A program made the translations under genes and the position numbers. A stretch of 47,819 bases of DNA. Source: a virus (taxonomy: Duplodnaviria; Heunggongvirae; Uroviricota; Caudoviricetes). Below the pieces are notes generated by a model, which made no database searches, was not told the origin of the DNA, and worked only from the letters and a program-made list of their open reading frames with translations. The stretch lies in the IMG/VR virus record IMGVR_UViG_2534681833_000010, one strand, 5' to 3'. Of this stretch, positions 4,548 to 47,819 are shown one piece after another (within the stretch, counting starts at the first letter, position 1; the number at the start of each line of letters is the position of its first letter).

Positions 4548-4697
4548 CTACGCCTCCGGGAACGCTGGCAAATTGACATCTGGTGCAGTGCTGGTATCCG
4601 TTGCGGTCACCGCATCGATATAATCCAGCACAGCGTTAAGACGGGTGGTTTCAGCCTGCGTAAGATTCCGCCCGGCCTGTAATTTCAGTTGAATAGA
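4548..4697 (-). pseudogene. tail fibre assembly protein (Tfa/U family) C-terminal domain fragment
   Basis: Open segment translating to ...LNAVLDYIDAVTATDTSTAPDVNLPAFPEA, resembling the conserved C-terminus of lambda Tfa (..[22 protein letters not shown]..); no start codon; different frame from the upstream 79-aa ORF. Confidence 0.45.
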
Positions 4698-4717
4698 CTA
4701 ATGGAGCCATTGCGGTA

Positions 4718-4957
4718 TCAATCAGCGACTGTTTTTTCTGTTTCAGCGTCAGCTACCAGTTCATCATGAGAACGTTCCGGAGTGGGTGGTGCAGTAAATC
4801 CCCCGTCTGAATACACCCAGCCGATTCCGGGCTGCTCACTGATATCAGAAATATTAATGAGCTGCTGATTATCCGGCACTGTGAATTCAGCCTCGCCATC
4901 CCAGACAATGACATTCACAACCATCCCATTTTCAATAACTGCATATGATGTATTCAT
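4718..4957 (-). CDS. hypothetical protein translationally coupled to tail fibre gene (possible Tfa N-terminal module)
   Basis: ATG overlaps the tail-fibre stop (TAATG); 79 aa from MNTSYAVIENG...; followed out of frame by the Tfa C-terminal fragment. Confidence 0.35.
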   Translation of the reverse strand: MNTSYAVIENGMVVNVIVWDGEAEFTVPDNQQLINISDISEQPGIGWVYSDGGFTAPPTPERSHDELVADAETEKTVAD

Positions 4958-6821
4958 TATGCAAACTCCTCGATAATACAAATCCCTGCAGCGCCTTTCC
5001 CGCCCGTCATACTGGTTCCGCTATAACCGGCATCGTATGCACCACCGCCGCCCGAACCATATGCCCGACCGATAACGCCACCGCCAGCGCCTGCGCGACC
5101 ACCGCCCCCCCAGAACGATGATCCTCCTTCACCACTGACGCTGATATTTCCGGACTGACCGTCTCCTCCATGCCCACCAATAATGCGGACATCACCAGTA
5201 TTCGGCGCGCCTCCATTACCACCGTTCGTGTTTGTGACTCCTACTTTCCCGCCGCCTTCACCGCCAGGGGCTATTACCGTTCCGAACGAGCTATCACCGC
5301 CCTTGAGGCCGTTCGTAGCACCAACACCGCCGCCCCCACCTGCGCCGATAGTGACAGGATAACTATCCTTCGTCAGGGTCAGCGTGACAATTACTGTCCC
5401 GCCGGCCCCACCGCCTGCACCGAAAAACGTTTCGTTATTGGATGTAGCCTGGCAGCCACCCCCTCCGCCACCGCCGCCCGTAATTGTGACCCTGATTCGT
5501 TTAGTTCCTGGTGTCGGGGTGTACGTACCTGATGAAGTGAAAATTCGAGTGTTTACAAGGCGTCCAACGTATCCACTTGCATCGCTCAGGCCAAGGTCAG
5601 CAGTAGTAGGTTTATTTTTAGTGTTATACGCTCTGCGCCATCCAGGTGAATAACTTGAGCCATTAGACACATAGATAAACTCCGCATTAGTGAGTGCACC
5701 AGTGACATTTGTCGTAGTGGCCGTTGTTATTCGAATGGTGTAATTGTTGGTATTATTGCTGAATACTTCTATCACAGCACCCGCCAGTGGAATAATGCCA
5801 CAACCAGTTTCACTGTCTGGTATGGATGCACTATTCGCATACGCCCATGCACAACGAGCGATCCATGCTTTCGTATTGAATGCCCCGTTATTTTGCAACA
5901 AAGTAACTAACTGGGCTGTCGTTATTGACTCACCGTTATTACCTGTTGTTAACCAACCAGTAGGAGATGCCGGGCAACCAATATTTGCTGGTGACAGTGA
6001 AATATTCGCAGAACCGTCAAATGAAACCCCATTAATGGTACGCGCTGTTTGCAATTTGGTAGCCGTAGCTGCATTACCGGTCGTGTTCTGGTTACCAGCA
6101 ATGTTTACACCCGGCAGGTTGATATTGGCGGAGCCATCGAATGACACGCCGCCGATTGTGCGGGCCGTCTGAAGTTTCGTTGCGGTTGCAGCATTACCAG
6201 TCGTGTTCTGGCTACCAGCAATATTCACGCCCGGCAGGTTGATATTGGCGGAGCCATCAAATGAAACGCCACCAATGGTTCTTGCCGTTTGTAATTTCGT
6301 GGCAGACGCCGCATTTCCTGTTGTGTTCTGGTTGCCCGTTGTATTTACGCCCGGTATGGAGTCTTTCGATGTATAGACCTGTGCCCACTCAGACCATGCC
6401 GCATCTGTGTTATCTCTTCTGGAGCGAATTAAGATAGGTGCATGAGCACCACTTGTAGCACTCCAGCCAATGAGTAACTCGCCTTCACCTCTTGATGTGG
6501 CTCCCTTCAGGTGAAGAATGTTCCCGTAAGCCGTAGGATAACCATTGTTGTACGCCTCATACATTTGCAACCCAGCTGCATCGCCTTGCGTTGTTCCGGT
6601 GAGCGCAGTAACACGTCCTCTGGACGTAATTGTTGGGATCGAAATGTCCGCAGAACCATCAAACTGAACACCATTGATGTTTCTCGCCTTTTGCAACTTC
6701 GTAGCCGTTGAAGCATTGCCGTTCAAACTACCATTGATGCCGCCAGTAACATCGAGCCCATTACCGATCGTAACAGTACCATTGGCATTGTTAATGATAA
6801 GCGGCCTTAAATTATTATAGG
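4957..6821 (-). pseudogene. tail fibre protein, distal (C-terminal) portion separated from the rest by IS2
   Basis: Reading frame continues across the IS2 target duplication into the upstream portion (..NSLGTY|NNLRPLIINN..); contains about 31-aa tandem repeats (ATATKLQTARTIGGVSFDGSANINLPGVNIAG.QNTTGNA) and a poly-Gly/Gly-rich C-terminal domain (TITGGGGGGGGCQ..GAGGGAGG..). Confidence 0.75.
5986..6354 (-). repeat. in-frame tandem repeats (about 93 bp unit, nearly 4 copies) within tail fibre gene
   Basis: Near-identical nucleotide and peptide repeats; further copies in the N-terminal portion. Confidence 0.7.
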
Positions 6822-6912
6822 TAGACTGGCCCCCTGAATCTCCAGACAACCAATATCACTTATTTAAGTGATAGTCTTAATACTAGTTTTTAGACTAGTC
6901 ATTGGAGAGCAG

Positions 6913-7278
6913 ATGATTGATGTCTTAGGACCGGAGAAACGCAGACGGCGTACTACACAGGAAAAGATCGCTATTGTTCAGCAGAGTTTTGAACCGGGAA
7001 TGACAGTCTCCCTTGTTGCCCGGCAACACGGTGTGGCAGCCAGCCAGTTATTTCTCTGGCGCAAGCAATACCAGGAGGGAAGTCTTACTGCTGTGGCCGC
7101 AGGAGAACAGGTCGTTCCTGCCTCTGAACTTGCTGCCGCCATGAAGCAGATTAAAGAACTCCAGCGCCTGCTCGGCAAAAAAACGATGGAAAATGAACTC
7201 CTTAAAGAAGCCGTTGAATATGGGCGTGCAAAAAAGTGGATAGCGCACGCGCCCTTATTGCCCGGGGATGGGGAGTAA
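6913..7278 (+). CDS. insC: IS2 transposase OrfA (InsC)
   Basis: [41 protein letters not shown]... helix-turn-helix and leucine-zipper OrfA of IS3 family. Confidence 0.85.
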
Positions 7279-8141
7279 GCTTAGTCAGCCGTTGTCTCCG
7301 GGTGTCGCGTGCGCAGTTGCACGTCATTCTCAGACGAACCGATGACTGGAAAGATGGTCGCCGCAGCCGTCACTCAGATGATACGGATGTGCTTCTCCGT
7401 ATACACCATGTTATCGGAGAGCTGCCCACATATGGTTATCGTCGGGTATGGGCGCTGCTTCGCAGACAGGCCGAACTTGATGGTATGCCTGCGATCAATG
7501 CCAAACGTATTTACCGGATCATGCGCCAGAATGCGCTGTTGCTTGAGCGAAAACCCGCTGTACCGCCATCGAAACGGGCACATACCGGCAGAGTGGCTGT
7601 GAAAGAAAGTAATCAGCGATGGTGCTCTGACGGGTTCGAGTTCCGCTGTGATAACGGAGAAAAACTGCGAGTCACGTTCGCGCTGGACTGCTGTGACCGT
7701 GAGGCACTGCACTGGGCGGTCACTACGGGCGGCTTCAACAGTGAAACAGTACAGGACGTCATGCTGGGAGCGGTGGAACGCCGTTTCGGCAACGAGCTTC
7801 CGGCGTCTCCAGTAGAGTGGCTGACGGATAATGGTTCATGCTACCGGGCTAATGAAACACGGCAGTTTGCCCGGATGTTGGGGCTTGAACCGAAGAACAC
7901 GGCGGTGCGGAGTCCGGAGAGTAACGGCATAGCAGAGAGCTTCGTGAAAACGATAAAGCGTGACTACATCAGTGTCATGCCCAAACCAGACGGGTTAACG
8001 GCAGCAAAGAACCTTGCAGAGGCATTCGAGCATTATAACGAATGGCATCCGCATAGTGCACTGGGTTATCGCTCGCCACGGGAATATCTACGGCAGCAAG
8101 CCAGTAATGGGTTAAGTGATAACAGGTGTCTGGAAATATAG
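7236..8141 (+). CDS. insD: IS2 transposase OrfB (InsD; expressed as InsCD by -1 frameshift)
   Basis: 301-aa ORF with DDE integrase-type catalytic domain (..WCSDGFEF.., ..[11 protein letters not shown].., ..[11 protein letters not shown]..) overlapping insC. Confidence 0.85.
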
Positions 8142-8152
8142 GGGCAAATCCA

Positions 8153-10477
8153 ATAGGTTCCCAGGCTGTTACCCGAATTGGTCAACATGAAATATGTCTT
8201 TGAGCCATCGTTTCGGATAAAGAATCCGTAGCTTCCATAGGCAATGCGGAAACCATTTGCATATCTTGAAACGATCTCACCAGTAGCCGTTAAACCGCCG
8301 TTGAGATTTCCTCCGGTTATTGGTAATGCGCCGACATCCGTGGCGGTCGGTTTAATGTGCGAACTGTAAATAACATATACCGTTCCATCAGTAAGACCAG
8401 TTGGTTTATCTACTGTGTAATTTGGTGATGTATGAATCGTTACGCTGGCGTTACTGGTATAATCCCACTGGATATTTACACCCGTGGCGTAATTACCTAT
8501 TTCAACATAAACATCATAGGTATCACCGGATGTATTCACCCATGCAAAATTAGTAAATCCAACCGATGTCCGTCGCCATAACGCACCAGTAAGACCTTTT
8601 GGATTCCCATTTCCCGCACGAAGAACAAGTTCAGATATACCAGCCTGCATAGGGGAGTTAACATTATATCCAGAACTACCAATCAGGCTTATGTAAACTA
8701 CGGAACTTGCCTGTGGCATGGTTACAGTTGCCAGCTTGAACCATCCTGCACCACCAATAAAAGACATGGTTGTTGAGTTGATCGTGCCTATAGACCTTGG
8801 AGTTAGCTCAATGTTTTTAGAACCGTCAAACGACACCCCATTTATAGTTCTCGCGGTTTGTAACTTGGTCGCTGTAGCCGCGTTACCGGATGTATTCTGA
8901 TTCCCCGCAACGTTAACACCAGGTAAATTAATATTCGCAGTACCATCAAATGCCACACCGCCAATCGTGCGTGCTGTTTTCAATTTCGTCGCGGTGTCGG
9001 CGTTCCCTGTCAGCGCCCCGGTGATCCCACCGTTGAAAGTCTGGCGTGCACTCCATGTGTTAGCCGTGCTCAACAGGGGGATCTTTTCACCGCTGGTACC
9101 GATTTCTCTTAAACCAAGGTATTGGATAACAGCCAGTGTGCTTGTTTTAGCCAGGATATCGCGACCGACTGACGTTAAATCAGTCTGGGAAACAGTGTCT
9201 GTACCGGTAAAGTACGGCAATTTATTTGCGCCAGTCGTAAGGCCAGCGAGCGCTGTTAAAGTTGCATCAAGTGGCTGTTTCCCTGCCAGCGCATTTGTCA
9301 TTGTTGTCGCAAAGTTCGGGTCATTGCCAAGTGCTGCTGCAAGCTCATTCAGGGTATCAAGAGCTTCTGGTGATGAGCCGACCAATGCAGATATAGCAGC
9401 CCGTACGTAAGCAGTCGTAGCGATCTGCGTATTGTTTGTGCCCTGTGCAGCGGTAGGTGCAGTAGGGATACCCGTTAATGCAGGGCTTGCCAAAGGCGCT
9501 TTGAGAGCCAGGGCATTGTTGATAGTTGTGCTGAAATTCGGGTCGTTATTGATCGCAGCCGCAATTTCTTTCAACGTATCCAGTGCTCCAGGAGCACCAT
9601 TGATAAGTGCTGTTATAGCTGCCTTAACAAAGGCTGTGTTTGCGATCTGCGTGCTGTTTGTACTTTGCGCTGCCGTAGGCGCGGTTGGCGTTCCTGTAAG
9701 CTCTGGGCTTTCTATTGGCGCTTTGGTATCAGCCAGCTCTTTTACAGACTTAACGGCTTTAGGGGTAGCCGCCATTGTTTCGCTGTCGCTGTTAGTTGCG
9801 CTACTGAGCTGAACTAATCCCTTTTGTGTTGTGCTTGCATCCTGCGCCGTATACTTGCTTTTCGCCAGATCGTAGGCTTTTTTAACCGCCAGCGAACTTG
9901 CAGCGACATCACTTCTGGTACTGGTTACAGAGTCGGAAATTTCAATGCCTATCGTGAGATCGATGCGGTCGGATACATCTATCATTTCCTGAGTAATAGC
10001 AGATACGCCAGCAGGGATATTCACCGTACAAACAAGCAGTTCCCCATCTCCTAACTGATATGAATCGGTATAGGTTCTGGCAACAAATTCAGCCGCATGA
10101 ATATGTGACGCGGTATTAACCTGATAAGAATCTTCTCCAAGGAGGTATCTTCCCTTCAGCACAATTGCATATTTCTTACCTGCGCTAAGTGCAAGAGAAA
10201 TATCCTTACGCTGCTGAATAGTTACCTGGTAGAATTCACCAATATTCACTGACGCCGCGCCAGCGGTTTTATCACCATCCACTGAGGTGATTAACAGGTT
10301 CATCCCACCGCCAGGCTTCGGCAGGAAACCAGCATAAAATCCAGGGTCAACAATTCCCCTGAATTTTCGGTTTAGCGCGGCTGACAGATATGGTTCGTGG
10401 TATTGCACATCAGCCACCAGAGCCAACGACTCGGGTGATGGGTAAGTAACCGATGTAACAACTGTAACGTCATTCAT
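8153..10477 (-). pseudogene. tail fibre protein, N-terminal portion (IS2-interrupted)
   Basis: Start ATG at 10475-10477 with AAGGA 9 nt upstream (MNDVTVVTSVTYPSPESL...); two about 69-aa repeats (TAPTAAQ.TN.TQIA.TA.V.AAI.AL....P.ALDTL.E.AAA..NDPNF) and fibre-type repeats shared with the distal portion. Confidence 0.75.
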
Positions 10478-10488
10478 CAAGCATATCC

Positions 10489-10923
10489 TTATGCTGTAGT
10501 CGTGTTTATGGCCATAACTGCGGTATATGTTTTGCCCACATACAGCGAGTCTTCCTGGACACAAATAATGGCGATTGGCTTGTTCTCGTTATCCAGAACA
10601 ACCAGAGTGTTGAATGGGTAGTTTTTCCCTTCCTGCAACTGGCTTTGATCAAGGTCCATTCGGACAGTAATTATCCCGCCTGAGTAGGTTGGAACGAGGT
10701 CGATGGTGCAAAATTGACTTGTCAGTTCAGCCAGATCGAAAGCCTTTGGCAGTTCTCCAATCTCATAAGTACCATCTCCTTTCTTAGTAACCAGTGAACT
10801 GGTACCGAAAACGGCCTTACTGATTAAAAATCGAGAGCCTTTGTTAATGGACGATTCAGCGCGCCGCTGATAGTAATAGTCCAACAACTGACTCTTATAG
10901 AGGTTTGTTGAGACGTCAGACAT
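10489..10923 (-). CDS. tail-fibre-associated virion protein (P1 R-like by position)
   Basis: 144-aa ORF immediately upstream of the fibre gene in the same operon. Confidence 0.3.
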   Translation of the reverse strand: MSDVSTNLYKSQLLDYYYQRRAESSINKGSRFLISKAVFGTSSLVTKKGDGTYEIGELPKAFDLAELTSQFCTIDLVPTYSGGIITVRMDLDQSQLQEGKNYPFNTLVVLDNENKPIAIICVQEDSLYVGKTYTAVMAINTTTA

Positions 10924-22573: not shown

Positions 22574-22590
22574 TTTGCTCTAATAAATTT
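22574..22590 (+). promoter_or_regulatory. C1 repressor operator (Op53-like) upstream of kilA-repL
   Basis: TTTGCTCTAATAAATTT, 16/17 to consensus. Confidence 0.7.
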
Positions 22591-22659: not shown

Positions 22660-23460
22660 ATGCAACAAACATTCAATGCGGATATGAATATATCAAACCT
22701 TCATCAAAATGTCGATCCTTCAACCACTCTGCCCGTTATTTGTGGTGTTGAAATTACGACCGACCGCGCTGGCCGTTACAACCTTAATGCTCTACACAGA
22801 GCGAGCGGACTCGGTGCCCATAAAGCGCCAGCTCAATGGCTAAGAACGCTGTCAGCTAAACAGCTCATCGAAGAGCTTGAAAAAGAAACTATGCAGAATT
22901 GCATAGTTTCGTTCGAAGGCCGTGGCGGCGGCACTTTTGCCCATGAATTGCTCGCTGTGGAGTACGCAGGCTGGATTTCTCCCGCGTTTCGGCTGAAGGT
23001 AAACCAGACATTTATCGACTATCGAGCTGGAAGATTACAACCTGCTATTCCGCAGAGTCTCCCTGAAGCTCTCCGTTTGGCTGCCGACCTGGCAGAGCAA
23101 AAGCAACGGCTGGAGCAAAAAATGCTTATGGATGCACCTAAAGTCGAATTCGCCGAACGCGTTGCTACCGCCAGCGGGGTTCTAATCGGCAACTATGCCA
23201 AAGTGCTCGGCCTGGGCCAAAACTATCTCTTCACCTGGTTGCGTGATAACGGAATTCTGATCGCAACCGGTGAACGCAGGAACGTCCCCAAACAAGAATA
23301 CATATCCCGTGGGTATTTCACCCTTAAAGAAACCGTGATCGATACAAGCAATGGAAGCAGGATTTCTTTCACGACTCGTATAACCGGCAAAGGTCAGCAG
23401 TGGCTTATGAAGCGATTGCTTGATGCTGGTGTGCTGGTGCCTGTCGCGGCGACGCGCTAA
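22660..23460 (+). CDS. kilA: KilA (KilA-N domain with ANT-type C-terminal domain)
   Basis: 266-aa ORF; N-terminal KilA-N-like region; C-terminus paralogous to Ant. Confidence 0.6.
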   Translation: MQQTFNADMNISNLHQNVDPSTTLPVICGVEITTDRAGRYNLNALHRASGLGAHKAPAQWLRTLSAKQLIEELEKETMQNCIVSFEGRGGGTFAHELLAVEYAGWISPAFRLKVNQTFIDYRAGRLQPAIPQSLPEALRLAADLAEQKQRLEQKMLMDAPKVEFAERVATASGVLIGNYAKVLGLGQNYLFTWLRDNGILIATGERRNVPKQEYISRGYFTLKETVIDTSNGSRISFTTRITGKGQQWLMKRLLDAGVLVPVAATR

Positions 23461-23489
23461 CAGACGTAGTAAGAACCACCAGCATTGTA

Positions 23490-24068
23490 ATGCTGGCTAA
23501 AGTCACTTTCCTGAGCTGTATAACGATGAGCGATTTTACTTTTTCTGGCTATGAATTGGCCTGCTTTGTAACACACTCCGGTCTATCCCGTAGCGCCGGG
23601 CATATCTTGTCGCAATGTGCAAATCTCGCGGCAACAACCAGTGAATACTTCATTCACAAGCCTCACCGCCTGATCGCGGCAGAAACTGGTTATAGCCAAT
23701 CAACCGTCGTTCGTGCATTCCGTGAAGCTGTAAACAAAGGAATCCTGTCTGTAGAGATTGTTATCGGCGATCACCGTGAACGTCGCGCTAACCTGTACCG
23801 GTTTACACCATCCTTTTTGGCCTTCGCACAACAAGCCAAAAATGCGCTGATTGAAAGCAAATTAAAGATCTCTTCAGCGGCAACCAAGGTTAAAGCTGTT
23901 CTCGCTAAGACATTGGCTTTATTTAATTTTTTATCCACACCCCCATGTCAAAATGATACCCCCTCCCCCTGTCAGGATGACGTGGCAATAAAGAATAAGA
24001 AGTCACAAGTTAAAAAACAAAAAGATCAGTTTCCGGCGGTGCCGGAACGACCAGACTCAAAAAATTGA
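23490..24068 (+). pseudogene. repL: RepL-like lytic replicon protein, N-terminal part ending at an apparent frameshift
   Basis: ORF downstream of kilA; ends in a Lys-rich tail at an A5 run; reading continues in the +1 frame with no start codon or RBS. Confidence 0.45.
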
Positions 24069-24334
24069 CTTCATGGATCGCTGAGGCAAAAGCAAAGGCT
24101 GACAATCTGCGGTTATCCAAAAAACGCGCTCAAAAACATGAGTTCAAGCAGAAAGTAGAGGCGGCAGCGCGGAAATATGCTTACCTGAAGGACAAGCGTT
24201 CTCCTGATATTGGCGGGATATCAAACTTCGATAATCTGCCGCATTGCATGACGGTAAACGAAGCTCTTAATGCGGTTTTAGCCAAAAATAAAGATAACGA
24301 ACAATGGGGTATACCGGCAGGATTCAGAGGGTGA
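24066..24334 (+). pseudogene. repL: RepL-like C-terminal continuation in shifted frame
   Basis: 89 codons opening with TTG inside the overlap TTGA; combined length 281 aa matches recalled RepL size. Confidence 0.35.
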
Positions 24335-24387
24335 TAGATTGCTCTAATCTGGAGTCACCTGGCGTTTTCGGTTTGAGGTCGGAGATG

Positions 24388-24630
24388 CAATCTGATTTTT
24401 TACAGTTAGCGATCGCTTTTGCAGGATATGTTTGTATTGGCTTCTGTGTATACATGATCAGCCGAAAAATGCTTGTCGATATCGACCGCAAAGAACAAGC
24501 AGAGGAGATCTTAGTATGGATTTTCTTTGGCGCGGTCTGGCCATTAGGGATCATGTTTGCTGCAACATTTCTTCTGATGTGGATATTCACCCTTCCAGGT
24601 GATTTCTATAGAAAAAAAGCCAGACATTGA
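24388..24630 (+). CDS. hypothetical small inner-membrane protein
   Basis: About 80 aa from MQSDF..; two hydrophobic helices (LAIAFAGYVCIGFCVYMI, WIFFGAVWPLGIMFAATFLLMWIF). Confidence 0.3.
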   Translation, partial: QSDFLQLAIAFAGYVCIGFCVYMISRKMLVDIDRKEQAEEILVWIFFGAVWPLGIMFAATFLLMWIFTLPGDFYRKKARH

Positions 24631-24967: not shown

Positions 24968-24989
24968 GAGACCTGGCGGGGAGAGATCC

Positions 24990-26328
24990 CATAAGCGCTA
25001 ACTTAAGGGTTGTGGTATTACGCCTGATATGATTTAACGTGCCGATGAATTACTCTCACGATAACTGGTCAGCAATTCTGGCCCATATTGGTAAGCCCGA
25101 AGAACTGGATACTTCGGCACGTAATGCCGGGGCTCTAACCCGCCGCCGCGAAATTCGTGATGCTGCAACTCTGCTACGTCTGGGGCTGGCTTACGGCCCC
25201 GGGGGGATGTCATTACGTGAAGTCACTGCATGGGCTCAGCTCCATGACGTTGCAACATTATCTGACGTGGCTCTCCTGAAGCGGCTGCGGAATGCCGCCG
25301 ACTGGTTTGGCATACTTGCCGCACAAACACTTGCTGTACGCGCCGCAGTTACGGGTTGTACAAGCGGAAAGAGATTGCGTCTTGTCGATGGAACAGCAAT
25401 CAGTGCGCCCGGGGGCGGCAGCGCTGAATGGCGACTACATATGGGATATGATCCTCATACCTGTCAGTTCACTGATTTTGAGCTAACCGACAGCAGAGAC
25501 GCTGAACGGCTGGACCGATTTGCGCAAACGGCAGACGAGATACGCATTGCTGACCGGGGATTCGGTTCGCGTCCCGAATGTATCCGCTCACTTGCTTTTG
25601 GAGAAGCTGATTATATCGTCCGGGTTCACTGGCGAGGATTGCGCTGGTTAACTGCAGAAGGAATGCGCTTTGACATGATGGGTTTTCTGCGCGGGCTGGA
25701 TTGCGGTAAGAACGGTGAAACCACTGTAATGATAGGCAATTCAGGTAATAAAAAAGCCGGAGCTCCCTTTCCGGCACGTCTCATTGCCGTATCACTTCCT
25801 CCCGAAAAAGCATTAATCAGTAAAACCCGACTGCTCAGCGAGAATCGTCGAAAAGGACGAGTAGTTCAGGCGGAAACGCTGGAAGCAGCGGGCCATGTGC
25901 TATTGCTAACATCATTACCGGAAGATGAATATTCAGCAGAGCAAGTGGCTGATTGTTACCGTCTGCGATGGCAAATTGAACTGGCTTTTAAGCGGCTCAA
26001 AAGTTTGCTGCACCTGGATGCTTTGCGTGCAAAGGAACCTGAACTCGCGAAAGCGTGGATATTTGCTAATCTACTCGCCGCATTTTTAATTGACGACATA
26101 ATCCAGCCATCGCTGGATTTCCCCCCCAGAAGTGCCGGATCCGAAAAGAAGAACTAACTCGTTGTGGAGAATAACAAAAATGGTCATCTGGAGCTTACAG
26201 GTGGCCATTCGTGGGACAGTATCCCTGACAGCCTACAAAACGCAATTGAAGAACGCGAGGCATCGTCTTAACGAGGCACCGAGGCGTCGCATTCTTCAGA
26301 TGGTTCAACCCTTAAGTTAGCGCTTATG
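24990..26328 (+). mobile_element. IS186 (IS4 family), complete, with 10-bp target duplication GGAGAGATCC
   Basis: Terminal inverted repeats CATAAGCGCTAACTTAAGGGTTG at both ends; direct repeats at 24980-24989 and 26329-26338; target is a GC-rich palindrome. Confidence 0.85.
25045..26157 (+). CDS. insL: IS186 transposase
   Basis: MNYSHDNWSAILAHIGKPEELDTSARNAGALTRRREIRD... recognised as IS186 transposase. Confidence 0.85.
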   Translation: MNYSHDNWSAILAHIGKPEELDTSARNAGALTRRREIRDAATLLRLGLAYGPGGMSLREVTAWAQLHDVATLSDVALLKRLRNAADWFGILAAQTLAVRAAVTGCTSGKRLRLVDGTAISAPGGGSAEWRLHMGYDPHTCQFTDFELTDSRDAERLDRFAQTADEIRIADRGFGSRPECIRSLAFGEADYIVRVHWRGLRWLTAEGMRFDMMGFLRGLDCGKNGETTVMIGNSGNKKAGAPFPARLIAVSLPPEKALISKTRLLSENRRKGRVVQAETLEAAGHVLLLTSLPEDEYSAEQVADCYRLRWQIELAFKRLKSLLHLDALRAKEPELAKAWIFANLLAAFLIDDIIQPSLDFPPRSAGSEKKN

Positions 26329-26390
26329 GGAGAGATCCCCGCCACTCTTCGTGTGTCAGGTATCCTCAATGCACCCTTTCCTCTCCAAAT

Positions 26391-46477: not shown

Positions 46478-47803
46478 TGAATCCCCTAATGATTTTGGTA
46501 AAAATCATTAAGTTAAGGTGGATACACATCTTGTCATATGATCAAATGGTTTCGCGAAAAATCAATAATCAGACAACAAGATGTGCGAACTCGATATTTT
46601 ACACGACTCTCTTTACCAATTCTGCCCCGAATTACACTTAAAACGACTCAACAGCTTAACGTTGGCTTGCCACGCATTACTTGACTGTAAAACTCTCACT
46701 CTTACCGAACTTGGCCGTAACCTGCCAACCAAAGCGAGAACAAAACATAACATCAAACGAATCGACCGATTGTTAGGTAATCGTCACCTCCACAAAGAGC
46801 GACTCGCTGTATACCGTTGGCATGCTAGCTTTATCTGTTCGGGCAATACGATGCCCATTGTACTTGTTGACTGGTCTGATATTCGTGAGCAAAAACGACT
46901 TATGGTATTGCGAGCTTCAGTCGCACTACACGGTCGTTCTGTTACTCTTTATGAGAAAGCGTTCCCGCTTTCAGAGCAATGTTCAAAGAAAGCTCATGAC
47001 CAATTTCTAGCCGACCTTGCGAGCATTCTACCGAGTAACACCACACCGCTCATTGTCAGTGATGCTGGCTTTAAAGTGCCATGGTATAAATCCGTTGAGA
47101 AGCTGGGTTGGTACTGGTTAAGTCGAGTAAGAGGAAAAGTACAATATGCAGACCTAGGAGCGGAAAACTGGAAACCTATCAGCAACTTACATGATATGTC
47201 ATCTAGTCACTCAAAGACTTTAGGCTATAAGAGGCTGACTAAAAGCAATCCAATCTCATGCCAAATTCTATTGTATAAATCTCGCTCTAAAGGCCGAAAA
47301 AATCAGCGCTCGACACGGACTCATTGTCACCACCCGTCACCTAAAATCTACTCAGCGTCGGCAAAGGAGCCATGGGTTCTAGCAACTAACTTACCTGTTG
47401 AAATTCGAACACCCAAACAACTTGTTAATATCTATTCGAAGCGAATGCAGATTGAAGAAACCTTCCGAGACTTGAAAAGTCCTGCCTACGGACTAGGCCT
47501 ACGCCATAGCCGAACGAGCAGCTCAGAGCGTTTTGATATCATGCTGCTAATCGCCCTGATGCTTCAACTAACATGTTGGCTTGCGGGCGTTCATGCTCAG
47601 AAACAAGGTTGGGACAAGCACTTCCAGGCTAACACAGTCAGAAATCGAAACGTACTCTCAACAGTTCGCTTAGGCATGGAAGTTTTGCGGCATTCTGGCT
47701 ACACAATAACAAGGGAAGACTTACTCGTGGCTGCAACCCTACTAGCTCAAAATTTATTCACACATGGTTACGCTTTGGGGGAAATTATGAGGGGATCTCT
47801 CAG
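46474..47803 (+). mobile_element. IS10 (Tn10-type, IS4 family)
   Basis: Outside end CTGATGAATCCCCTAATGATTTTGGTAAAAATCATTAAG at 46474; inside end ..GGGGATCTCTCAG ending 47803; no matching 9-bp target duplication. Confidence 0.85.
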
Positions 47804-47819
47804 TGCTCAGCATGTTTGA
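46581..47819 (+). CDS. IS10 transposase (C-terminus altered and extended to window end)
   Basis: MCELDILHDSLYQFCPELHLKRL... recognised as IS10 transposase; run of five G at 47776-47781 where four are recalled shifts the frame at the C-terminus (..GYALGEIMRGSLSAQHV). Confidence 0.8.
   Translation: MCELDILHDSLYQFCPELHLKRLNSLTLACHALLDCKTLTLTELGRNLPTKARTKHNIKRIDRLLGNRHLHKERLAVYRWHASFICSGNTMPIVLVDWSDIREQKRLMVLRASVALHGRSVTLYEKAFPLSEQCSKKAHDQFLADLASILPSNTTPLIVSDAGFKVPWYKSVEKLGWYWLSRVRGKVQYADLGAENWKPISNLHDMSSSHSKTLGYKRLTKSNPISCQILLYKSRSKGRKNQRSTRTHCHHPSPKIYSASAKEPWVLATNLPVEIRTPKQLVNIYSKRMQIEETFRDLKSPAYGLGLRHSRTSSSERFDIMLLIALMLQLTCWLAGVHAQKQGWDKHFQANTVRNRNVLSTVRLGMEVLRHSGYTITREDLLVAATLLAQNLFTHGYALGEIMRGSLSAQHV

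Follow-up and report, generated by a model that had tools for sequence, protein, structure and literature searches.

Gene Organization of the Lytic Replicon

The stretch of DNA analysed here (the window, 47,819 nucleotides) is a P1/P7-type phage-plasmid with an ordinary kilA-repL lytic replicon. For the interval 23400-24400, identities of 97-99.9% were obtained with Punavirus phages and with over 500 plasmids from E. coli, Salmonella, and Klebsiella, the matched features being annotated as KilA and RepL. The operator Op53 (OrepL), which is controlled by C1 and overlaps the promoter P53/PkilA of the kilA-repL operon, is present at positions 22574-22590 of the plus strand as an exact match to P1 (NC_005856), and the P53/PkilA promoter region differs from that of P1 by one base. 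The first gene of the lytic operon, kilA, is intact (22660-23460, plus strand; 266 amino acids) and agrees in coordinates and length with the annotations in P1, P7, and their relatives. The repL gene is found 3' of this intact kilA and under the C1-repressed P53/Op53.

The repL gene itself is distributed over two reading frames of the plus strand. The first ORF (23490-24068) consists of 192 codons, which represent residues 1-176 of native RepL followed by 16 out-of-frame residues (QKDQFPAVPERPDSKN) and a TGA stop codon at 24066-24068. The native C-terminal frame (residues ~176-281) is open from 24014 to 24334, directly preceded by a TAA at 24011-24013, and contains an ORF of 89 codons, extending from a TTG at 24065 to 24334, whose start codon overlaps the stop codon of the first ORF (TTGA). 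The first-pass annotation had described repL as interrupted and continuing in another frame, and both halves indeed correspond to P1/P7 RepL, their combined length of 192 + 89 = 281 amino acids being that of P1 RepL. It was also right in assigning no ATG or ribosome-binding site to the downstream part, since the 89-codon ORF starts with TTG and neither an ATG nor a Shine-Dalgarno-like motif was found upstream of it. The frame of this part, given there as +1, has to be corrected to -1 (equivalent to +2) relative to the first ORF, as the starting positions 23490 and 24065 correspond to 0 and 2 modulo 3, respectively.

Precomputed assignments to the Pfam family PF26868 (Phage_P1_RepL) exist for both fragments, as recorded for products identical to those of the window, and the PHROGs database contains separate families for the RepL halves: the 5' fragment is represented by phrog_8046 and phrog_2418, the C-terminal one by phrog_7057. 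After restoring a single frame, phrog_2418 covers residues 1-281 of the repaired RepL (E = 1e-157), and the repaired protein is homologous to P1/P7 RepL over its full length. Scans of the repaired protein against local copies of Pfam and NCBIfam, which are devoid of a model for it, returned no family except for a sub-threshold match to MarR_2, so that the RepL assignment rests on the precomputed PF26868 entries, the PHROGs, and direct identity. Intact genes of this type form a single ORF of about 260-285 codons, whereas the one in the window stops after 192. A natural stop at this position followed by an independent gene, which would have spoken against a frameshift, is not seen in the homologs: RepL proteins with identities down to 45-50% from Enterobacter and metagenomes are all encoded by single ORFs (261-283 amino acids). 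The break is located in a variable and poorly conserved basic linker, which separates a conserved N-terminal domain from motifs of the C-terminus retained in distant RepL homologs. The latter motifs, for example ARKYA[YF]L, are absent from the truncated product. The 89-codon ORF is thus identified, by its predicted product, as the native C-terminus of RepL, and repL as written represents either a pseudogene or a gene that has been mis-called.

Position of the Missing Base

The lesion maps to positions 24012-24017 of the plus strand, where the window contains A6 instead of the A7 tract of intact repL (repL nucleotides 523-529; codons Lys175-Lys176-Thr177), as supported by alignments, a panel of related loci, and repair of the sequence. 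The tract consists of seven A residues in P1, P7, pSvP1_F, the ETEC1731 plasmid, and all 66 panel loci, and nearly all database matches are one base longer than the query segment to which they align (1002 vs. 1001). Inserting one A at 24012-24017 generates a protein of 281 amino acids which is 100% identical to the RepL proteins of P7 and pSvP1_F, so the earlier prediction that one added A would join the two frames was borne out by repair in silico. The site proposed for it was a different one: the first-pass annotation had located the lesion in an A5 run immediately before the stop codon. That run actually consists of six A residues (24059-24064, plus strand) and is identical in the aligned intact relatives, while the alignment with P1-like relatives places the missing base 47 nucleotides further upstream. 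Adding the base at 24059-24064 was also tried and fuses the frames as well, yet was rejected because 16 non-native residues remain in the product. Apart from the missing base, the window shows no mismatches over 846 nucleotides to the A7-containing loci L002 and L010. The split is a difference of one nucleotide in an otherwise identical gene and not a chance pattern.

The Lesion within the Lytic Origin

The A tract overlaps with the AT2 element of oriL, an A/T-rich region required in cis when replication is driven by RepL (Huan et al., 2023; PMC9948254), which was assigned to positions 23984-24028 of the window and is 1 bp shorter than in P1; these boundaries are approximate, as they were taken from a machine-read supplementary figure of that study. 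AT2 was described there as a segment of 43 bp with about 80% A/T, located roughly at nucleotides 495-540 of repL, and a fragment containing only AT2 was sufficient as target. The element terminates in a 13-mer-like motif, GATCTTTTTGTTT (PMC9948254), which is found in the window as the reverse complement of 24015-24027 (bottom strand), and the A/T content reaches its maximum at 23987-24028. The wild-type primers of the same study show A7, and its substitutions SL6 and SL7 fall at and in the run; single substitutions in AT2 reduced the activity only modestly (PMC9948254). The missing base is located inside AT2, the experimentally defined core of oriL and the best current candidate for its unwinding element. 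The lesion therefore changes the reading frame of the initiator and at the same time takes 1 bp from its target.

Directly 5' of AT2, two direct repeats are present at 23940-23980, CCCCC-A-TGTCAAAATGA and CCCCC-TGTCAGGATGA, which encode the peptides PPCQND and PSPCQDD. Their consensus, CCCCC-N-TGTCA-RR-ATGA, is conserved on the DNA level in the loci L019 and L020, which encode RepL homologs of only about 48% protein identity. The repeats represent iteron-like candidate binding sites for the initiator. The A7 run itself is specific for the P1 lineage and is absent from distant homologs.

Distribution of the A6 Allele

Exact matches to the A6 allele over 81 nucleotides were obtained for two of 514 plasmids in PLSDB and two of 518 RefSeq records of E. 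coli, corresponding to three distinct records in all. Among the IMG/VR contigs, 65 carry A7 and five A6, while an A8 allele was not found in any of them. In public assemblies, A6 occurs on at least six haplotypes of kilA-repL, apparently contributed by many projects. It is present in read-level assemblies of SRR10310403, SRR10186984, and ERR9855646, whose accession numbers suggest dates of 2019-2022, and in the closed plasmid CP121349, and a related allele combining A6 with a C>T exchange is found in CP051361 and CP088422. The haplotype of the window is recorded with A6 in three NCBI assemblies, of which AIGC01 and AIGA01 belong to one WGS block and AKNH01 to another, and in the read-level assembly of SRR490739, from which a contig identical to the window is obtained. 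The A6 loci L011, L017, and L018 are contained in the window without any change, and these four sequences differ from the A7 loci L002 and L010 by nothing else over 1.8 kb.

The 89-residue C-terminal ORF is annotated on 75 + 210 and further contigs. Its count was rejected as a measure of the A6 frequency, because other upstream lesions yield this ORF as well. Likewise, the protein P0032 (109 amino acids, labeled "partial") was discarded as a witness for A7, being an N-terminal fragment frameshifted at a T-run and silent on the A-run. No repL frameshift is reported in the description of the O111:H8 P1-like plasmid (PMC13596339).

Mutation or Homopolymer Under-Call

The first-pass annotation had offered three explanations, of which a deletion and a sequencing error both agree with the observed single-base deficit in an A homopolymer, while a slippery-run frameshift is not supported, given that relatives normally possess a fused ORF with A7 and the potential heptamer is out of register. 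Of the two which stand, a heritable slippage mutation in a decaying prophage-plasmid, affecting a site which mutates repeatedly in P1-like plasmids, has in our estimate an even chance of being correct. The alternative states that the isolate contains A7 and an intact repL gene for 281 amino acids, and that one base of the homopolymer was dropped in its draft assembly. It falls somewhat short of an even chance, and the real mutation is rated only slightly above it.

Under-calling of homopolymers by one base is a known tendency of 454, Ion Torrent, and Nanopore data. The general quality of the window argues against this explanation. Compared to the near-identical closed plasmid NZ_CP122822.1, 43.4 kb were aligned with only six single-base substitutions outside of an inverted IS186, and 61 of the 63 homopolymers of at least six bases agree; the mismatches are the repL run and a C-run in IS186, and in the latter case it is the comparator which is frameshifted, not the window. 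In the survey against the 66-locus A7 panel, for which gaps were left-normalised, since BLAST places homopolymer gaps differently on either strand, 34 of 35 long homopolymers are correct in the window, among them 12 further 7-mers and one 8-mer, and the repL run is the sole long-run deviation. With the other long homopolymers being correct, the failure of one site in every assembly of the sequencing project to which the window apparently belongs is not accounted for by under-calling at a generic rate.

An under-call also disagrees with the occurrence of A6 on related haplotypes in assemblies from elsewhere, some of them made from runs whose accession numbers are of a later style. The presence of the window's own haplotype with A6 in NCBI assemblies of two accession blocks and in SRR490739 likewise speaks for a real mutation. 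Because it is found on at least six haplotypes from apparently many projects, the A6 allele exists in nature and arose repeatedly. Moreover, elements with A6 are enriched for independent lesions in kilA (about three of 20 non-redundant A6 elements vs. one of 61 with A7; p = 0.045). Among these lesions are an insertion outside of homopolymers and a case in which kilA is truncated internally at its 5' side, adjoining a transposase gene, and their enrichment suggests a real decay of the operon.

An under-call is in turn favored by the origin of the contigs. All five A6 contigs in IMG/VR apparently derive from one draft project of the 2012 era, the same as that of the window. Four of them apparently correspond to AIFB, AIFV, AIGA, and AIGF, which belong to the consecutive block GCA_000249195-795, whereas the fifth is tied to this 2012-era batch only by neighboring IMG and SRA numbers. 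None of the at least 64 other IMG/VR contigs contains A6 (p < 1e-6), and the A6 contigs of the project span at least four repL haplotypes. A natural allele frequency of about 1% cannot give such a clustering without a project-specific cause, and the clustering in one project fits better to an artefact of the technology or pipeline than to biology. The AIF and AIG series of drafts presumably represents the genomes of the "DECA collection," which we take to be 454-based, and the AKNH draft is assumed to be a 454-based genome of another center (an FDA CVM strain). The contig of the window traverses both IS2 and IS186, as would presumably be expected from mate-pair assembly of the 454/Celera type rather than from short reads.

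Further observations point in the same direction. The A6 allele is rare in closed plasmids, and two of the three exact records occur in obviously error-ridden sequence; visible errors accumulate in the A6 records CP016549 (a duplicate), CP090325, and JAPWWC01. Among closed sequences, pSvP1_F and the ETEC1731 plasmid are most closely related to the window, and across kilA-repL both are identical to it except for containing A7. A second long A-run, CGCCTTT-A8-GAGG, is also one base short in the loci of the project (2/2 vs. 2/25; p = 0.017), and over all runs of at least seven bases, deviations were recorded for two of 21 in the project loci and three of 195 in the others (p = 0.075). Finally, the window contains a patch of three private small indels at 4695-4743, which are shared by none of 56 plasmid records, so the assembly is not error-free.

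Potential Roles of the Split Gene

The A7 tract, in which the RepL reading frame and the unwinding element overlap, may serve as a natural toggle, with slippage to A6 disabling the initiator and perhaps the origin, thereby locking the phage-plasmid in a harmless plasmid-only state which would be repeatedly selected in its hosts. This is considered improbable; if true, phage-plasmids would have been domesticated convergently by way of a single hypermutable base, and this would be reflected in the repeated appearance of A6 on six or more haplotypes and in its association with independent kilA lesions.

Even less probable, and very unlikely in absolute terms, is that full-length RepL is still produced from the A6 allele, either by -1 slippage of tRNA-Lys or by RNA polymerase slippage adding one A, or else that the tract alternates between A7 and A6 as a reversible ON/OFF switch of lytic replication. 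The logic of the sequence would allow it, as a -1 slip in the P-site on AAA-AAA, followed by ACA, would restore the wild-type protein exactly. A switch would also be compatible with the occurrence of A7 and A6 on one and the same haplotype and the repeated origin of A6, and a high RepL activity is possibly cytotoxic (PMC9948254), so that an OFF state could be advantageous. However, about 99% of the more than 500 related plasmids possess a fused A7 ORF, and the two-frame arrangement is not conserved, as the exact A6 allele is missing from all but two of the 514 plasmid records and from all but two of the 518 records of E. coli. The zero frame reads GTT-AAA-AAA-CAA and does not form an X-XXY-YYZ heptamer: the run is phased AAA-AAA-C, so the heptamer A-AAA-AAC is out of register by one. 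Single-tRNA slippage in the P-site is thus the only conceivable kind, and nothing suggests that it exceeds the background. As to stimulating elements, no GGAGG-like motif is present in the 27 nucleotides upstream of the run. An inverted repeat (TTCCGGC-GGT-GCCGGAA; 24031-24047, plus strand) starts 14 nucleotides 3' of the A tract, instead of the 5-9 nucleotides typical of a downstream stimulator; it also occurs in intact relatives, and the hairpin folds no better than shuffled sequences (z = -1.18). An A6 run is below the length required for efficient slippage of E. coli RNA polymerase. A reversible switch is further disfavored by the lack of A8 alleles among the sequences found, by the absence of the run from distant homologs, and by the occurrence of other, irreversible lesions in repL, which suggest plain decay. 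Programmed frameshifting is therefore not supported.

The least credible proposal is that the 192-residue fragment and an independently translated 89-residue fragment, initiated by stop-coupling at the TTG at 24065, reassemble as an active initiator: the position of the break in the basic linker between the conserved N-terminal domain and the C-terminal motifs, the overlapping stop and start codons (TTGA), and the wide annotation of the 89-residue ORF would agree with this, but the TTG lacks a Shine-Dalgarno sequence, 16 linker residues are replaced or lost, the split is the normal architecture in no relative, and the calls of the 89-residue ORF are a mechanical by-product of the frameshift.

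Expected Consequences for the Element

If a heritable slippage mutation is assumed, one A:T pair would have been lost from the A7 tract during replication, shifting translation after Lys176 into 16 unrelated residues and the stop codon at 24066-24068. The predicted product would keep the N-terminal winged-helix part without the conserved C-terminal 105 residues of RepL, and so should not initiate replication. The unwinding element of the origin would at the same time be shorter by 1 bp. With the loss of RepL and a shorter AT2, the element would therefore be expected to persist via its RepA/oriR plasmid replicon without lytic amplification; the initiation of lytic replication would probably be lost, whereas the plasmid replicon should be unaffected. 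The repL gene is listed among the known essential genes of P1, and was missed by a CRISPRi knockdown screen.

Additional lesions are present in the window. The tail-fibre gene S is split by an IS2 with a 5-bp target duplication, and an IS186 is located 3' of repL, at the place where gene loss has been reported for pSvP1: in this closely related element, rlfA, rlfB, and pmgF are lost beside IS186B (PMC6906374). The lesion in repL fits an element which is already damaged in lytic functions elsewhere.

If the base is really missing, the element would be incapable of lytic replication and represent a plasmid-locked, decaying prophage, a state which bears on the question of whether such elements still move between hosts as virions. 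A recurrent lesion inside AT2 further implies that one slippage event would hit the lytic replicon both in trans and in cis. For annotation, a single repL pseudogene should replace the two ORFs, or a single intact gene in case the reads show A7, and the 89-residue proteins listed in databases as "RepL" or "hypothetical" should be regarded as products of the frameshift. The link between the allele and one sequencing project calls for caution against counting such frameshifts as evolution without support from reads.

Relation to Known Records and Systems

The split repL allele is already present in public data and is neither a new mechanism nor a new kind of feature. The drafts AIGC01, AIGA01, and AKNH01 contain the identical A6 allele with the same products of 192 + 89 amino acids, and the equivalent repL gene in NZ_CP090325.1 is labeled as "frameshifted" pseudogene by PGAP. 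Comparable splits are recorded for the Salmonella plasmid p28322-3 (CP051361.1; 176 + 89 amino acids) and phage vB_EcoM-673R5 (154 + 117 amino acids). Breaks at other sites of repL are found in further records, namely at a C-run at nucleotide 476, a T-run at nucleotide 438, a C at nucleotide 530, and in the neighboring A5 run. What is added here is the correct location of the lesion, its position inside AT2 of oriL, and the recognition of a recurrent allele which is heavily confounded by the sequencing project.

Programmed -1 frameshifting, as known from dnaX and the transposases of the IS3 family, likewise involves an A-rich slippery stretch read by tRNA-Lys and a downstream frame at -1. In contrast to these sites, the heptamer of repL is out of phase and accompanied neither by a Shine-Dalgarno-like motif nor by a well-spaced structural stimulator, and the split form is a rare allele rather than the conserved state. 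The gene also shares with phase-variable contingency genes a homopolymer within the coding sequence, which changes recurrently and varies in length by one residue among elements that are identical in all other positions. Both tract lengths were indeed found in otherwise identical elements, and recurrently, although part of this may be technical. Unlike in contingency genes, however, the tract is short (seven residues) and shows contraction only, and the enrichment in a single project suggests that the signal is partly of technical origin.

With the lytic replicon of P1 and P7, composed of P53/Op53, kilA, and repL with oriL inside of it, the window shares the gene order, the operator, and kilA. 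The DNA identity of the region amounts to 98.0% with P1 and 99.8% with P7 (95% of the query aligned), and the repL gene of the window is distinguished from that of P7 by a single substitution in addition to the missing base. The repL genes of P1 and P7 are uninterrupted, whereas the ORF of the window is broken at codon 177 and its AT2 is 1 bp shorter. Differences extend to the region 3' of repL, which is occupied by rlfA and rlfB in P1, and in the window by an ORF for 81 amino acids, hok, and IS186, as in pSvP1 and the ETEC1731 plasmid. By homology, gene order, and operator, the locus is a member of the kilA-repL-oriL lytic replicons of the P1 type, from which it departs in the integrity of the repL ORF and, by 1 bp, in the length of AT2.

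Insertion sequences in the window and its closest relative

The window and the closed, near-identical plasmid NZ_CP122822.1 (CP122822) are 99.99-100% identical over the 20 kb on each side of an IS91 insertion that is present in CP122822 (positions 52563-54389) and absent from the window at 37876/37877, and the two therefore differ almost only by IS events. An IS2-type element of 1331 bp, bordered by a 5-bp target duplication (ATAGG), occupies window positions 6822-8152 and breaks the tail-fibre gene S in two, leaving flanking minus-strand ORFs of 832 codons (8066-10564) and 630 codons (4957-6849). The same IS2-type element adjoins a deletion in CP122822 instead of splitting the gene. The element represented by the window is probably devoid of the capacity to form infectious particles.

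An IS186/IS421-type element lies downstream of repL at 24974-26344 and carries an intact transposase ORF of 372 codons (25039-26157), whereas the corresponding transposase of CP122822 is annotated as frameshifted, with a C6 run in place of the C7 of the window. Its target site is common to the window, CP122822, and the closely related P1-like plasmid pSvP1, as is the flanking 10-bp duplication (GGAGAGATCC/GGATCTCTCC), but the window copy is reversed with respect to its flanks. This reversal could reflect an independent insertion at a hot-spot or an inversion in place, or the orientation of the repeat could be arbitrary in a draft assembly. Similarity to CP122822 stops at 46473, and the different sequence over approximately 46474-47819 opens with CTGATGAATCCCCTAATGATTTTGGTAAAAATCATTAAG, which we take to be an IS10 terminal repeat; given this presumed end, the region would be a further IS insertion in the window element.

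Three single-base indels (two deletions and one insertion), at 4695, 4704, and 4743, fall inside a 50-bp stretch of the tail-fibre-assembly/C-segment region. None of the 56 plasmid records with a match here shares them, and each has the CP122822 version. The cause is probably a misassembly confined to this part of an invertible, repeated segment, or else a cluster of mutations private to the window.

Length variation and lesions in related loci

A second long A-run, at the site CGCCTTT-A(n)-GAGG, which is absent from the window, consists of eight residues in 23 of 27 related loci and of seven in the remaining four (L013, L034, L038, and L100). Because each of these four belongs to a different haplotype, and two come from the draft project of the window and two from elsewhere, one-base length variation of long A-runs is recurrent among P1-like elements in public assemblies. 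Independent kilA lesions occur in the related loci L034/L104, L108, L025/L035, and L046, namely an inserted A leading to a stop at codon 96, a deleted A, and an internal 5' truncation beside a Y1 transposase gene. The kilA-damaged elements mostly also bear the repL A6 allele, the tract short by one A; kilA is broken in only one of the 61 loci with the intact A7 tract in repL.

At the end of the RefSeq "complete" plasmid NZ_CP016549.1, the ant-kilA-repL-hok region occurs a second time in low quality (L006; 120824-126046), with each gene annotated as frameshifted and repL carrying 10 gaps. An intact copy is present elsewhere in the record. Failure to trim and polish an overlap in a long-read assembly most likely accounts for the terminal one.

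Direct repeats beside the lytic origin core

Directly upstream of AT2, the A/T-rich core of oriL inside repL, two direct repeats of the form CCCCC-N-TGTCA-RR-ATGA are found at 23940-23980, encoding the peptides PPCQND and PSPCQDD. They are kept at the DNA level in RepL homologs with about 48% protein identity (L019 from Enterobacter and L020 from a metagenome). The RepL binding sites were left undefined in the study of oriL (Huan et al., 2023; PMC9948254), and the repeats may be these sites. The order of elements here, iteron-like repeats and then an A/T-rich element, is like that of a classical origin.
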